In this document: positions 12,700 through 20,149 of the stretch, piece after piece
How the letters are laid out: every line of letters starts with the position of its first letter
Position numbering within the stretch: the stretch's first letter is position 1
Assembly: GCA_029880545.1 (NCBI GenBank)
Contig: JAOUOD010000002.1
Span: 113,827-177,826, forward strand
DNA length: 64,000 nt
From: Gammaproteobacteria bacterium
GTDB lineage: Bacteria; Pseudomonadota; Gammaproteobacteria; Acidiferrobacterales; SZUA-150
Direction of reading: 5' to 3'
The notes under the pieces: model-generated
The model's input: the letters and a program-made list of their open reading frames with translations, nothing else
Told to the model about the DNA's origin: nothing
The model's database searches: none
Translations under genes and position numbers: made by a program

Positions 12700-12715
12700 G
12701 CTCTAGTTATTGCAA

Positions 12716-14638
12716 ATGATCAAGCACTCAAATTACATCGTCGTTACAATAATCGCGCTGATAACGACCATCAGTTACTGGCCAGGATTGAGCGGCCCCT
12801 TTATGTTTGACGACATGTCAAATATCGTTATCAACAAGAAAATCCACATTTCTGAATTGTCATGGGATGCGCTTGCAGATGCGATTCGGTCACTTGAAAG
12901 CGGTCCTCTCAAGCGCCCCATATCAACTGTAAGTTTCGCGCTAAATTACTATTTCTCGGAATTATCCCCTTTTGCGTACAAGGCCACCAATCTTGTCATC
13001 CATATATTGAACTCTTTTGGTTTATTCGTTCTCGCCAATCTGCTACTTCAGAATACCCATGACAAGACTGGTAACCTGCTGTCAATCCGCCTGGCTTATT
13101 GGACAGCAGCAGCAGCGGCTTTACTTTGGGCAATTCACCCACTGAACCTCAGCTCTGTACTATATATTGTTCAGCGGATGACCAGCCTTTCTGCCACGTT
13201 TCTGATTTTCGGGCTTATCGGATACTGCCTGGGAAGAATCAGACTGATAGCAGGAATTCGAAACGGTCTCATAATATCGGTTGCATCTCTCACCGGCTTT
13301 GGGATTCTATCCGCGCTAAGCAAAGAAAATGGCATACTGATATTTTTTTATGCAATGATAATCGAGGTATTCGTCTTTCGCTTTTCTGTAAACATTGGTC
13401 TCCGAAAGCATTACAAAACATCGATAATATCTTTCTACGTTGCCCCTATTATTGTTGGCATACTTTTATCTCCAATTTACGCCACCAGTGTACTGAAGCT
13501 CGATCATTACGATATGCGTCAGTTTGATATGGCTGAACGACTGATGACAGAAGCGCGGGTAATCTGGTTTTACCTCAAACTCATCGCAGCCCCGACGCCG
13601 TCAGCACTTGGCTTGTATCATGACTATTTTCCATTTTCGACGTCAATGACACAGCCGATGTCTACACTTTACTCGGTAGTTTCTTTGATACTACTTCCAG
13701 TCGTTGCAATTATTCTCAGAAATAGGGCGCCAATCATTTCTTTTGCGATATTCTGGTTTCTTGCCGGGCACAGTCTTGAGTCGAGCGTTGTGCCACTTGA
13801 GCTTGTCCACGAACACCGGAACTATGTCCCCATGTTTGGACCTGTTCTCGCTACGACTTATTATCTGCTATACCATGCCAGGAACCCGGAAAGCCTTAAA
13901 CTATGGTCTGGCCTATTCGTTTTAATAGTCTTGCTTTTTTCGGCTGGAACATTTGCACGAGCGTCTGTTTGGTCAAATGAATATCGAATGAAACTGACTC
14001 AGCTCTTGGACCACCCCAATTCGGCACGTGCCAACTCCGATATGGCTATACTGCTTCACAACAGCAGGCAGCTTGACAAAGCCGAAAACCTGTTCAAGAA
14101 AGCTGCCGAACTTGACTCTGATCCACCCCACCAGCTGATGCGCCTGATGCAACATCTCTATGTCTTTTACAAACCTGTACCCAGGGAGTATCTGGAGACA
14201 CTGGAATTTTGCGCCAGAAACACACCGTATTCACATGTCACAATCTGGCAGTACGAAGCCTTGATGGAACAATCGAGGACAATCCCTGAAGATAATGCCC
14301 GGATTGTCGAGGCATTCAGATTGATGATTTCGTCGAACAGAGTCAAGCTGTCCCGAGAATGGGTAGCAAAATCTTATAGCATTCTCGGCGAAAACTACTT
14401 ACATATGAAAAAAATCGACGAAGCTATCGAATCATTTGGCGGCGCAGTGGAAAATGATGCCAAACCAGCTTATTTGCTACAGCTGGCAAATGCTTACCAT
14501 CATGCCGACAGATTTCAGGAATCACTTGCGACATTAAAACAAATTGGTGGCAAGACTCGTCTTCCCGAGCATCTCGTCAATACATACGACAGACTTCACG
14601 ACGATTTGGAACATGACATGGACAGAAACCGGAAATGA
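12716..14638 (+). CDS. multi-pass membrane protein with C-terminal TPR domain; putative GT-C (PMT/TMTC-like) glycosyltransferase
   Basis: The first ~430 aa contain many hydrophobic helices. An early loop motif YWPGLSGPFMFDDMSNIVINKK resembles the acidic first-loop motif of GT-C enzymes and the TMTC family. The C-terminal ~200 aa are TPR-like (ANSDMAILLHNSRQLDKAENLFKKAAELD..., AKSYSILGENYLHMKKIDEAIESFGGAVEND...). Confidence 0.6.
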   Translation: MIKHSNYIVVTIIALITTISYWPGLSGPFMFDDMSNIVINKKIHISELSWDALADAIRSLESGPLKRPISTVSFALNYYFSELSPFAYKATNLVIHILNSFGLFVLANLLLQNTHDKTGNLLSIRLAYWTAAAAALLWAIHPLNLSSVLYIVQRMTSLSATFLIFGLIGYCLGRIRLIAGIRNGLIISVASLTGFGILSALSKENGILIFFYAMIIEVFVFRFSVNIGLRKHYKTSIISFYVAPIIVGILLSPIYATSVLKLDHYDMRQFDMAERLMTEARVIWFYLKLIAAPTPSALGLYHDYFPFSTSMTQPMSTLYSVVSLILLPVVAIILRNRAPIISFAIFWFLAGHSLESSVVPLELVHEHRNYVPMFGPVLATTYYLLYHARNPESLKLWSGLFVLIVLLFSAGTFARASVWSNEYRMKLTQLLDHPNSARANSDMAILLHNSRQLDKAENLFKKAAELDSDPPHQLMRLMQHLYVFYKPVPREYLETLEFCARNTPYSHVTIWQYEALMEQSRTIPEDNARIVEAFRLMISSNRVKLSREWVAKSYSILGENYLHMKKIDEAIESFGGAVENDAKPAYLLQLANAYHHADRFQESLATLKQIGGKTRLPEHLVNTYDRLHDDLEHDMDRNRK

Positions 14639-15492
14639 GTGAAAAACTATCAATAGTCCTCCCGTCAAAGAATGAAGGCAAAAGCCTTGAACTGCTTCTT
14701 CCCAAGCTTAAGTCCTGTTACAGCAGCGCAGAGATTATTGTTATTGATGATGGCTCCGATGACAATACCGGGGTCTTGTGTGCAGACCATGCAGTGACGC
14801 ATGTTCGGCATACCTACTCCAAAGGCAACGGTGCAGCAATCAAGTCCGGCGCCCGTGCCGCAACCGGGGACATTATTGTTTTCATGGATGCCGATGGTCA
14901 GCATAATCCGGAAGATATCCCAAAACTCCTGGAACCATTCAAAAACGGCGCGGATATGGTCATCGGCGCGCGCAAAGCCTCCGGGCAGGCCAGTGTTGCA
15001 AGATTGTTCGCCAATAGCCTGTATAACAGGCTTGCCAGCCTGCTGGTTGGACACAGAATTGAAGACCTGACATCGGGTTTTCGTGCCGTCAGACGCGAGC
15101 TTTTCCTGGAATTTCTTCACCTGCTGCCGAATGGTTTTTCATACCCAACCACCATTACCATGTGCTTTTTCCGTGCCGGTTATACCGTGTTATACACGCC
15201 AATCGAGACAGCAAAACGAATCGGCAGAAGCCATATCAACCTGCTTCGAGATGGCGCGCGCTTCCTGATTATCATCTTCAAGATCGCCACCCTGTATTCG
15301 CCGTTAAAGCTGTTTCTGCCGATCAGCCTGGTCCATTTTACGGTCGCATCTGGCTACTATTTCTACACTTATACAATGTTTGGCCGCTTCACCAATATGA
15401 GCGCGTTATTGTTTGTCGCCTCGATTCTGATTTTTCTGATCGGACTGGTATCGGAACAAATCACGGCGCTACTCTACAAAAACAGGGACTAA
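14635..15492 (+). CDS. family 2 glycosyltransferase, polyprenyl-phosphate sugar synthase type (GtrB/Dpm1/ArnC-like)
   Basis: LSIVLPSKNEG...IIVIDDGSDDNT...GNGAAIKSG...FMDADGQH is the GT2 signature. Two C-terminal TM helices are present. The start overlaps the upstream stop (ATGA at 14635-14638). Confidence 0.85.
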   Translation: MSEKLSIVLPSKNEGKSLELLLPKLKSCYSSAEIIVIDDGSDDNTGVLCADHAVTHVRHTYSKGNGAAIKSGARAATGDIIVFMDADGQHNPEDIPKLLEPFKNGADMVIGARKASGQASVARLFANSLYNRLASLLVGHRIEDLTSGFRAVRRELFLEFLHLLPNGFSYPTTITMCFFRAGYTVLYTPIETAKRIGRSHINLLRDGARFLIIIFKIATLYSPLKLFLPISLVHFTVASGYYFYTYTMFGRFTNMSALLFVASILIFLIGLVSEQITALLYKNRD

Positions 15493-15528
15493 CTCCAACC
15501 TTTCGCAGACTCAAACAATCGCACCGAC

Positions 15529-19065: not shown

Positions 19066-19130
19066 CAGCGATCCGCAGCTGGCTAAAGCGATACTTGTTG
19101 ATACACGAGCCCGGTCTTGTCCGGAATAAT

Positions 19131-20078
19131 TCATCCGGAATGTCTGCGGGAAAACAACACCAGCCCGCCGCCCACCAGAAGCTCCAGCATCGCGAGCCAG
19201 ATACGAAACACCAGCACCAGCAAGACCGCGTCTGCCAATGGCATTGCAACAGACAGAACCCAGGCACTTACCGCTTCCCGCACACCCACTCCACCCGGCG
19301 CGAAAACCGCCAGGAACCCGGCACTCATTCCTGCGATACAGGCAATAATAACAATGGCTGCATCATGATAGCCGGGAGCTGCAGGAAGCAGCGACAAGGA
19401 TATTCCATACATCACCATGCCCAGCAACAGCCATACCAGCATGTACATCACCAGAAACCGGAACTGCCTGGAAATCGATAATACAAAATTTTCCGAGCGC
19501 CCTGACTGCGTGTTACCTGCTAATCGCCGTGCGAACCTGATCAACAGATTCAAGGGCTGCTGAAACCCGATAGCTATAACGACGAGCAGCGTAATCGTCA
19601 TTGCTGTAAACCACAATATCGCGGTATCAAACAGCACCGCCCCCAGCAGTGCCATAACGACAACGCCTGCTCCCATCAGAAAAACCTGTTCTATATACGT
19701 TGCCTGAACGATCTTTTCGGTATCCAGCCCGTGCTGTCGAGCGAGACGAGACCCGCGCGCGATCATGCCCCATACTTTTCCCGGAATATATTTTCCGAGA
19801 TTCACAAGACTTAACTGCAGAAAACTTTCTTTGATACCTGGCTTAACAGGTGCAACCGAAAATACAACCATTGACCACATATAACTCGATACCAGCCAGA
19901 ACATGCACTGGAATACCGCACTGAAGATCAACGGCCAGATTGCAAAACGAATATGACGGTTAATCTGCTCAACCTGACCGGAAAGATAAAAAGATGCGTA
20001 GGCAATACTGATGATGACGAACAACGGCATCGAGTAATCCCGGATCAGTTTGCGCAAGAAGCCACTATTCCCGACCAT
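19131..20078 (-). CDS. flippase-like / lysylphosphatidylglycerol-synthase-TM-region family (UPF0104) membrane protein
   Basis: 315-aa polytopic protein with LGKYIPGKVWGMIARG and FAPGGVGVREAV motifs characteristic of that family. It is convergent with the methyltransferase gene. Confidence 0.65.
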   Translation of the reverse strand: MVGNSGFLRKLIRDYSMPLFVIISIAYASFYLSGQVEQINRHIRFAIWPLIFSAVFQCMFWLVSSYMWSMVVFSVAPVKPGIKESFLQLSLVNLGKYIPGKVWGMIARGSRLARQHGLDTEKIVQATYIEQVFLMGAGVVVMALLGAVLFDTAILWFTAMTITLLVVIAIGFQQPLNLLIRFARRLAGNTQSGRSENFVLSISRQFRFLVMYMLVWLLLGMVMYGISLSLLPAAPGYHDAAIVIIACIAGMSAGFLAVFAPGGVGVREAVSAWVLSVAMPLADAVLLVLVFRIWLAMLELLVGGGLVLFSRRHSG

Positions 20079-20149
20079 AAATGCTCGCCACTATTCTCCC
20101 GATGATCTGTTTCGACAAATACCATTTTCGATTAGAATACGCCCGCATT

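Follow-up and report, generated by a model that had tools for sequence, protein, structure and literature searches.

The DNA analysed here, called the window below, is a stretch of 64,000 nucleotides (nt) of contig JAOUOD010000002.1 (assembly GCA_029880545.1) from a gammaproteobacterium whose strain was present at about 38x in one sediment metagenome, and the subject of this study is the island of genes between its type IV pilin gene pilA and a tRNA-Arg gene. Because the host is an uncultured sediment bacterium, the evidence on function is computational, as are the function assignments throughout. The gene order is pilA, a terminator, six plus-strand genes, a convergent UPF0104 gene, tRNA-Arg(CCT) and then ccmABC. 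A first-pass annotation made from the bare sequence had placed seven genes between the pilA terminator and tRNA-Arg, and all of them were recovered at the following positions, with the UPF0104 gene on the minus strand:

8581-10281, plus strand: pilS, which forms a two-component pair with pilR upstream of pilA (context, outside the island).
10291-11676, plus strand: pilR, partner of pilS in that pair (context, outside the island).
11885-11900, plus strand: sigma-54-type promoter-like site TGGCACGGAAACTGCT, about 220 nt 5' of the pilA start codon.
12120-12641, plus strand: pilA, type IVa prepilin and proposed acceptor (N_methyl, 8.8e-11; TIGR02532).
12670-12693, with a tail to 12703, plus strand: terminator-like hairpin and T-run between pilA and the GT-C gene.
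12710-14638, plus strand: TfpW-like glycosyltransferase of the predicted GT-C fold with tetratricopeptide repeats (TPR), 642 amino acids (aa) from a TTG start (alternative ATG at 12716, giving 640 aa).
14635-15492, plus strand: family 2 glycosyltransferase (GT2), predicted polyprenyl-phosphate sugar synthase of the DPMS/ArnC/GtrB/AglJ type (PF00535, 3e-31).
15529-16380, plus strand: MT1, soluble class I S-adenosylmethionine (SAM) methyltransferase (Methyltransf_11, 1e-23).
16377-17168, plus strand: MT2, soluble class I SAM methyltransferase, forming a recurrent cassette with the GT4 gene.
17165-18331, plus strand: family 4 glycosyltransferase (GT4), GT-B fold, Leloir type, soluble and predicted to be cytoplasmic (Pfam and NCBIfam matches, no transmembrane (TM) segments).
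18328-19065, plus strand: MT3, soluble class I SAM methyltransferase (homologue in locus L020).
19131-20078, minus strand: UPF0104/LPG_synthase_TM membrane protein, predicted lipid-linked-sugar flippase (PF03706, 5.5e-13).
20150-20226, plus strand: tRNA-Arg(CCT), right-hand border of the variable region (same tRNA at this border in loci L001, L004 and L058).

Four junctions among the six plus-strand island genes are 4-nt overlaps, including that of the GT2 start with the GT-C stop codon, and the genes otherwise nearly abut, so that they resemble one operon. The gap between pilA and the GT-C gene amounts to 68 nt and holds the terminator, a hairpin of 10 pairs (6 of them G-C) with a loop of 4 and the tail TTCTTTGCTC. 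Structures of this kind after major pilin genes are described in the literature as setting the expression level of accessory genes, and the pilA terminator probably attenuates read-through into the accessory genes here. Upstream of pilA, the site TGGCACGGAAACTGCT has one mismatch to TGGCAC-N5-TTGCW, and near-matches to this pattern are not rare (7 sites in the window versus 3.9 expected); it stands between pilR and pilA, where a PilR/sigma-54 promoter is expected, and is a weak candidate for that promoter. Two direct copies of AAATTGTCAC (11708-11722 and 11738-11752), 30 nt apart, were observed just 3' of pilR and upstream of the sigma-54-like site, with more TGTC words near 11825 and at 11955-11975; they resemble upstream activator (PilR-binding) sites.

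The membrane protein encoded directly after pilA, which the first-pass annotation had described as a multi-pass protein of 640 aa with TPR and an early FMFDD motif, is indeed of this kind, with a length of 642 aa from TTG or 640 aa from ATG, FMFDD at residues 31-35 (FMFDDM at 31-36) and TPR Pfam matches at residues 429-584. The TPR repeats are all that Pfam and NCBIfam recognise: the membrane domain had no Pfam match even at E<=1 in 21 family members, and the Pfam models PMT, PMT_2 and TMTC_DUF1736 matched neither the window protein at E<=0.01 nor the 21 family members at E<=1. Relatives of the protein numbered at least 1,965 in a 90%-clustered database, some of them carrying the JGI label 'protein O-mannosyl-transferase', and a profile of the membrane domain matched 65,396 clusters (50% identity) at E<=1e-3 and 10,024 at E<=1e-30. 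Pfam offers no model for this very large superfamily and covers none of its tested members.

The AlphaFold model of the full-length protein reached a predicted local distance difference test score (pLDDT) of 91.8 and a predicted template modelling score (pTM) of 0.90. Since the full-length fold search and a profile search of PDB sequences were swamped by TPR proteins, residues 1-425 were folded alone (pLDDT 85.6, pTM 0.89). When this TM-only model was compared with the PDB by Foldseek, the nine top matches were to human STT3A/B, yeast Stt3, Pmt4, PglB and ArnT, i.e., GT-C enzymes with lipid-linked donors (probability 0.87-1.00, TMq 0.32-0.52); Pmt1/2 and EmbB stood lower in the list, and the unrelated matches all had a probability of <=0.21 and a TMq of <=0.18. 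The model thus supports a GT-C fold for the membrane domain of the 642-aa protein, as had been suspected at first pass. In the predicted topology, the N-terminus faces the cytoplasm, 11 TM helices span residues 1-421 and the TPR domain (about 424-641) lies in the periplasm. D34-D35 is located just after TM1 in periplasmic loop 1 and was invariant in 54 and in 21 aligned homologues. Further invariant residues are grouped in loop 4 (Y288, P295, G301, H304 and D305) and loop 5 (E364, H369, R370 and N371), and apart from DD about 50 periplasmic-loop positions do not vary among the homologues. These data bear on the view that the TPR membrane protein lacks catalytic activity and serves the pilin as a chaperone or assembly factor, comparable to TfpY or TfpX, and that the glycosyltransferase genes act elsewhere. 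Non-glycosylating pilin accessory genes do occupy the same slot in Pseudomonas aeruginosa, and TPR domains mediate protein-protein contacts; however, the invariance of the DD motif and of so many periplasmic-loop positions, the GT-C fold and a lipid-sugar synthase gene that is nearly always adjacent render such a role extremely improbable.

With regard to gene calls, the public-collection call for the window GT-C starts at Met32 (611 aa), by which TM1 is lost. The longer open reading frame (ORF) is real, because Y23, G26, L27 and G29, which lie 5' of Met32, are conserved, and annotated starts across the GT-C family may often be too short. No GT-C paralogue was found elsewhere in the window, in which the other ORFs of ~645 aa encode a secretin, a histidine kinase and CcmF.

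Linkage to pilin genes was analysed in the neighbourhoods of related genes. From roughly 585 or more genome hits, the 80 best loci were taken from named genomes; their GT-C proteins are 33-44% identical to the window protein, and they come from Acidiferrobacterales, Sulfurifustaceae, Methylococcales, Thiomargarita, Ectothiorhodospiraceae, Gallionella, Undibacterium, Novimethylophilus, Rhodocyclaceae, Polaromonas and Lysobacteraceae. Cultured carriers among them are Undibacterium hunanense CY18W (L018) and Novimethylophilus kurashikiensis La2-4 (L023). Neighbours were counted in those loci with enough flank (69 upstream, 68 downstream). In 65 of the 69 loci the GT-C gene comes immediately after a prepilin gene, in 55 of the 68 it is immediately followed by a gene homologous to the window GT2, and xFDD was kept in all 97 full-length GT-C copies of the 80 loci. 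Many gammaproteobacterial loci show the order pilS-pilR-pilA, and pilSR is absent upstream in most Betaproteobacteria. As the wider neighbourhoods vary in this way, the conserved unit is pilA - GT-C - GT2 and not a vertically inherited block. The pilin synteny, kept over two proteobacterial classes, is the strongest evidence for the pilin link, which had been proposed from the window by itself and now stands on firmer ground than the first-pass annotation could know. Two or three tandem GT-C copies occur in 11 loci. In L006, L010, L017, L047, L058, L062, L066, L067, L077, L078 and others, the tandem GT-C/TPR paralogues are flanked by pilA on one side and by one GT2 gene on the other, and every copy keeps xFDD; they could serve several acceptor sites, stepwise periplasmic extension or several pilins.

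The GT2 was assigned at first pass to the polyprenyl-phosphate-sugar synthases, and this assignment is borne out. Two hydrophobic TM helices are present at its C-terminus (residues 210-228 and 255-273), and its nearest solved relatives are DPMS from Pyrococcus (4e-23), ArnC (3e-18) and GtrB sll0501 (3e-11), the last of which aligned over GT2 residues 4-276, TM helices included. The best NCBIfam matches were AglJ (3.5e-34), dolichyl-phosphate hexose transferase, PgfS and ArnC; all of them fall below the equivalog cut-offs and thus single out no particular sugar for the GT2. These comparisons support the placement of the GT2 with the polyprenyl-phosphate sugar synthases DPMS, ArnC and GtrB, and its adjacency to the GT-C gene in most loci gives indirect support to the notion that the GT-C uses a polyprenyl-phosphate-linked sugar donor. 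The UPF0104 protein has 7 strongly hydrophobic segments and belongs to PF03706, a family which includes the flippase domain of MprF. The UPF0104 family consists of predicted flippases, and its archaeal members adjoin AglD-like GT2 and PMT/STT3-like genes (Makarova et al.), with which the earlier label 'flippase-like' agrees. GT4 and the three methyltransferases contain no TM segments and should therefore be cytoplasmic.

The closest described counterpart of the GT-C protein is TfpW (AAM52060.1) from P. aeruginosa group IV (Pa5196, PA7), an enzyme of 646 aa. Its N-terminus lies in the cytoplasm and is followed by 11 predicted TM helices and, at the C-terminus, by a TPR domain in the periplasm; the DDX motif of periplasmic loop 1 is essential, and ArnT was the best modelling template (Burrows laboratory preprint). 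TfpW is required genetically for pilin glycosylation, mutation of DDX abolishes glycosylation, and putative TfpW homologues adjoin pilA in several species (Burrows laboratory preprint); the species named there were not among the 80 best loci of the present study. The preprint names WP_090729738.1, WP_130134296.1, WP_028883051.1, WP_139198627.1 and STR11763.1 as homologues. As far as the published description of TfpW allows a comparison, both genes directly follow pilA and both proteins (646 versus 642 aa) share 11 TM helices, a periplasmic TPR domain, DD(X) in periplasmic loop 1, conserved residues mostly in the periplasmic loops and GT-C/ArnT-like structural similarity. The first-pass annotation had cited TfpW for its position next to pilA only; the parallel in position holds, whereas its restriction to position does not, since the architecture is shared as well. 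Within the literature searched, pilin, GT-C and TPR come together in the TfpW preprint only, and no paper was found that ties pilin glycosylation to a GtrB-type synthase.

The two systems differ in how the donor is supplied. TfpW draws on polyprenyl-P-D-arabinofuranose (D-Araf) from an unlinked DprE1/DprE2/DPPR-synthase cluster with a GtrA-like protein, and it polymerises its sugar without a cytoplasmic glycosyltransferase. In the window, by contrast, an adjacent hexose-type GT2 of the DPMS/GtrB kind and UPF0104 replace the D-Araf pathway and the GtrA-like protein, and cytoplasmic GT4 and methyltransferase cargo is added, with 2-3 tandem GT-Cs in some relatives. None of the D-Araf genes (DPPR synthase, DprE1, DprE2) was found in the island, and no Dpr-type family was among the 25 commonest families of the 131 downstream ORFs described below. 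We consider it likely that the locus O-glycosylates the pilin in a TfpW-like manner and supplies its own lipid-linked sugar. Owing to the architecture shared with TfpW (646 aa, 11 TM, periplasmic TPR, DDX), it is best called TfpW-like and not a wholly new type.

The genes downstream of the GT2 behave differently from the core. The interval had been suspected of being hypervariable, and comparison with the metagenomic relative L001 revealed that the cargo has been replaced, with DNA homology lost between 15480 and 20148. L001 has the same frame (tRNA-Pro, pilS, pilR, pilA, island, tRNA-Arg, ccmA), its PilS and PilR orthologues carry the domains 6TM_PilS/HisKA/HATPase and Response_reg/Sigma54_activat/HTH_8, respectively, and its identity to the window is 81% for the pilin (pilA), 80% for pilR, 59% for GT-C, 67% for GT2 and 87-89% for ccmB/C. 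The homology ends at 15480, just 3' of GT2, and restarts at tRNA-Arg (20148), which is 97.6% identical in the two loci, with unrelated cargo next to it. L001 carries in this interval a methyltransferase different from those of the window, a GT4 without relation to the window GT4, a FemAB-like acetyltransferase, a fragment of UPF0104, a sulfotransferase, a second methyltransferase and a DegT aminotransferase. The segment from GT2 to tRNA-Arg (15.5-20.1 kb) is a swappable cargo bay, completely replaced in a close relative. A further relative, ~87-90% identical, was observed in the 2023 sediment metagenome X4 in pieces over 7000-12186 and 20679-25000. The longest of the pieces listed break off at 12186, within the conserved 5' portion of pilA, and set in again in ccmA, which fits a different pilin tail and island there, although the contigs are too short to prove replacement.

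A census of 131 ORFs downstream of the core (<=3 per locus) counted 32 GT4s, 17 methyltransferases, 16 extra GT2s, 8 proteins of the RmlD/epimerase/dehydratase kind, 6 LPG_synthase_TM proteins and 4 Wzx-like proteins. Among the genes of the window, the only clear homologue of MT1 was detected in L032, homologues of MT2 and GT4 are adjacent in L037, L062, L066 and L068 and occur together in L032, and UPF0104 homologues were found in L004, L011, L036, L037, L055 and L068. PF20706 'GT4-conflict' (conflict-system GT4s) was matched by 14 of the 131 neighbouring ORFs and not by the window GT4; these matches may hint at a defence-related role of some cargo sets.

The island had also been called strikingly AT-rich. 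A lower G+C content (GC) is real, and the value of 19/60 for positions 13321-13380 is exact, but 'strikingly' overstates the difference: GC is 48.4% in the island versus 54.5% in the rest of the window. The GC of third codon positions (GC3) is 48-58% as compared to 62-75% in the flanking genes, and the island is the lowest-GC 7.4-kb stretch of the window, about 2.7 standard deviations under the mean. The dip is larger in L001 (41.2% versus 54.5%). No integrase and no att-like repeat derived from tRNA-Arg were found in the island, and no GT-C copies were found on plasmids (tblastn) or phage contigs; a phage- or plasmid-borne or integrative-element origin was rejected on these grounds. A 17-nt stretch of the tRNA-Arg T-arm (20196-20212) recurs as a 94% complementary inverted copy at 20280-20296, 67 nt 3' of tRNA-Arg and before ccmA; it may be left over from an earlier recombination event at the border or have arisen by chance.

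Composition, tRNA border and cargo would also suit a Gtr-like three-component system that acts on lipopolysaccharide O-antigen, core or exopolysaccharide and for which the pilA-tRNA interval would be a favoured landing site. GT2, flippase and GT-C together follow the GtrB/GtrA/GtrC logic known from O-antigens, a tRNA gene lies at the edge of the island, whose GC is lowered, and GT4, methyltransferases, RmlD, epimerases and Wzx-like proteins are typical of polysaccharide loci. However, a mere hotspot would not place a pilin gene before the GT-C gene in 65 of 69 loci, even in loci without pilSR or tRNA, and the lack of integrase, tRNA-derived att repeat and plasmid or phage copies noted above also speaks against it. 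Moreover, a C-terminal TPR domain is a hallmark of protein-directed GT-Cs (TfpW, TMTC) and has not been reported for GtrC. Taken together, a polysaccharide-directed role appears unlikely.

The comparison with GtrA/GtrB/GtrC itself (Kelly et al. 2024) reveals a common scheme, in which a GT2 charges undecaprenyl phosphate, a flippase exports the product and a GT-C transfers the sugar in the periplasm. In the Gtr system, by contrast, the acceptor is a polysaccharide and GtrC is not described with TPR, whereas the window has a pilin neighbour and its island carries the UPF0104 protein instead of a GtrA homologue. The eukaryotic protein O-mannosyltransferases TMTC1-4 have the same 11 TM helices, DD in loop 1 and lumenal C-terminal TPR, and a catalytically important TM7-TM8 loop with a membrane-parallel helix. 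The TMTC enzymes O-glycosylate Ser/Thr of a specific protein class from a polyprenyl-phosphate monosaccharide (dolichyl phosphate mannose, Dol-P-Man, made via DPM1); TMTC and PMT enzymes differ from the window system in organism, acceptor and probably sugar, and the corresponding Pfam families (DUF1736/TMTC, PMT, PMT_2) are not matched here. TfpO (PilO), PglL and TfpM are likewise multi-pass membrane enzymes that glycosylate pilins in the periplasm, and tfpO occupies the same slot between pilA and a tRNA gene. In contrast to the window system, they are Wzy_C/O-antigen-ligase-like and transfer oligosaccharides linked to undecaprenyl pyrophosphate (Und-PP) en bloc, and TfpO uses a C-terminal Ser acceptor, which the pilins associated with the present family do not conserve. 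In accordance with the earlier statement that the system is neither of the TfpO nor of the PglL type, no Wzy_C domain was detected in any island protein (Pfam, E<=0.01).

The archaeal Agl pathway resembles the locus in its set of AglJ/AglD GT2, UPF0104 domain, AglP methyltransferase and STT3-type AglB. AglJ is the best NCBIfam match of the window GT2, below the family cut-off, and UPF0104 is fused to or located beside AglD. In the pathway of Haloferax, which starts from AglJ, both assembly and methylation of the glycan take place on a polyprenyl monophosphate (dolichol phosphate). The Agl system differs in being N-linked and in targeting S-layer proteins and archaellins, and the likeness is one of pathway logic, not of orthology.

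Following these comparisons, we propose that limited read-through from the PilR/sigma-54-type pilA promoter would set the level of the accessory enzymes. The GT2, acting at the cytoplasmic face in the way of DPMS, ArnC, GtrB and AglJ, on which this step is modelled, would use a common nucleotide sugar to attach a monosaccharide to undecaprenyl phosphate. Subsequently, GT4 and the three SAM methyltransferases might tailor the lipid-linked sugar before export by adding a second sugar and by O-methylation; this is the weakest step of the scheme, and it is proposed because of the operon structure and the analogy to archaeal Agl. By this route the pilin would carry a methylated sugar, as we infer. 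The UPF0104 protein would then flip the lipid-linked sugar to the periplasmic face, where the GT-C, using its D34-D35 loop together with periplasmic loops 4 and 5, would transfer it to Ser/Thr of the globular domain of the pilin, which the periplasmic TPR domain may hold. Cargo swaps would place different glycans on near-identical pilins, plausibly as an escape from pilus-specific phages. Such phage escape has been shown for TfpO and TfpW glycosylation in P. aeruginosa.

Several points weigh against this reading. The Foldseek E-values are weak (1.7e-3 to 6e-2), though the match list is clean. The TfpW loop 4 motif YX6PFX7P is half present in the window protein, as Y288-x6-P295 only; position 296 is variable instead of Phe and there is no Pro at +8. 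A C-terminal Ser, the acceptor of the TfpO type, was found in only 9 of the 65 associated pilins. LPG_synthase_TM accounts for only 6 of the 131 census ORFs, so that the flippase assignment cannot be general. We know of no documented bacterial GT-C system in which a GT4 extends a polyprenyl-monophosphate sugar, and the roles suggested for the GT4 and the methyltransferases rest on archaeal analogy. Furthermore, a GT4 together with UPF0104 also resembles glycolipid operons such as gpgSDF.

The last points would fit a division of the island. GT-C and GT2 alone would then serve the pilin, onto which they would put one sugar or, as in TfpW, a homopolymer, and GT4, the three methyltransferases and UPF0104 would form a separate module that does no more than occupy the same variable bay; one possibility is a GpgS/GpgF- or HexS/HexF-like glycolipid synthase-flippase pair with lipid or small-molecule methylation. 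Apart from the gpgSDF-like make-up, it is in line with such a division that the cargo is not conserved with the core, that TfpW polymerises without a cytoplasmic glycosyltransferase, and that class I SAM methyltransferases have many non-sugar substrates, the best NCBIfam matches of those in the window being fatty-acid, ubiquinone and BioC-type enzymes (all sub-threshold). On the other hand, the genes from GT-C to MT3 are packed closely into one operon, in which start and stop codons overlap at four junctions, and the MT2-GT4 cassette recurs beside the core in the distant lineages named above (L032, L037, L062, L066, L068). In addition, UPF0104 occurs alone in L004, L011, L036 and L055 and a window-type GT4 alone in L032, L038, L039, L062 and L066; that the two occur independently speaks against an obligate GT4-flippase pair. 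We therefore regard the divided island as rather doubtful, though not negligible, and prefer the TfpW-like system with its own lipid-sugar supply.

The pilA product, the proposed acceptor of this TfpW-like system, has the leader MKKHQSG followed by FTLIELM and a mature length of 166 aa. Ser is the last residue of the window pilin. A role for it as acceptor, as in TfpO, was rejected, because of its rarity at this position among the associated pilins and because it fits the common ending KY(L/R)PK-x. Conserved Ser/Thr columns of the pilin alignment, e.g., mature Ser81 of the window pilin, may be proposed as acceptor sites by way of speculation. A Cys at mature position 36 (RVSDC) was observed in the pilins of the window, L003 and L005, all from the Acidiferrobacterales group. 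The second Cys of the window pilin lies mid-sequence, so that the usual C-terminal disulfide loop is absent; most other pilins of the set end in ...C-x(n)-KY(L/R)PxxCR or KYLPK-x.

Glycans on the pilin protect type IV pili against pilus-specific phages and change the chemistry of the pilus surface. To our knowledge, only two types of pilin-glycosylating enzymes are well studied, the TfpO/PglL family and TfpW, and what is known of TfpW comes mainly from a rare lineage of P. aeruginosa whose sugar is exotic. The present locus suggests that what has been seen of the TfpW architecture is a small part of a far larger group, and its main value is to point to a large, unannotated, pilin-linked GT-C family with a simple genomic signature. 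The order pilin - GT-C - GT2 could be used to predict glycosylated pili in uncultured bacteria of sulfur, iron and methane cycling. Moreover, pilin-specific O-glycosyltransferases with a self-contained donor supply could serve glycoengineering, and they offer a tractable bacterial model for TMTC-like enzymes. A broader proposal, to which we give somewhat less than an even chance, is that pilA, TPR-GT-C and GtrB-like GT2 are the core of a very widespread, hitherto undescribed three-component protein O-glycosylation pathway dedicated to the type IV pilins of environmental Beta- and Gammaproteobacteria. This pathway would be the bacterial counterpart, and possibly a relative, of TMTC/Dol-P-Man, with TfpW arabinosylation as one specialised offshoot, and its cargo bay would make pilin 'glycotypes' as O-antigen loci make serotypes.

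A second pilus-type cluster was observed in the window at 37772-53013 on the minus strand, with neighbours to about 57548:

37772-39703, minus strand: secretin with an N-terminal OmpA domain.
41219-42355, minus strand: PilM_2.
42352-43521, minus strand: GGDEF protein.
43786-46530, minus strand: CBM96/disaggregatase-repeat protein, 914 aa.
49818-51005, minus strand: T2SSF platform protein.
50959-53013, minus strand: MshE-like ATPase with STAS and MshEN domains, the latter binding cyclic di-GMP (c-di-GMP).
53010-55256: GAF-GGDEF-EAL protein, neighbour of the cluster.
55605-57548: PAS histidine kinase, neighbour of the cluster.

The second cluster looks like an MSHA-type pilus under c-di-GMP control.

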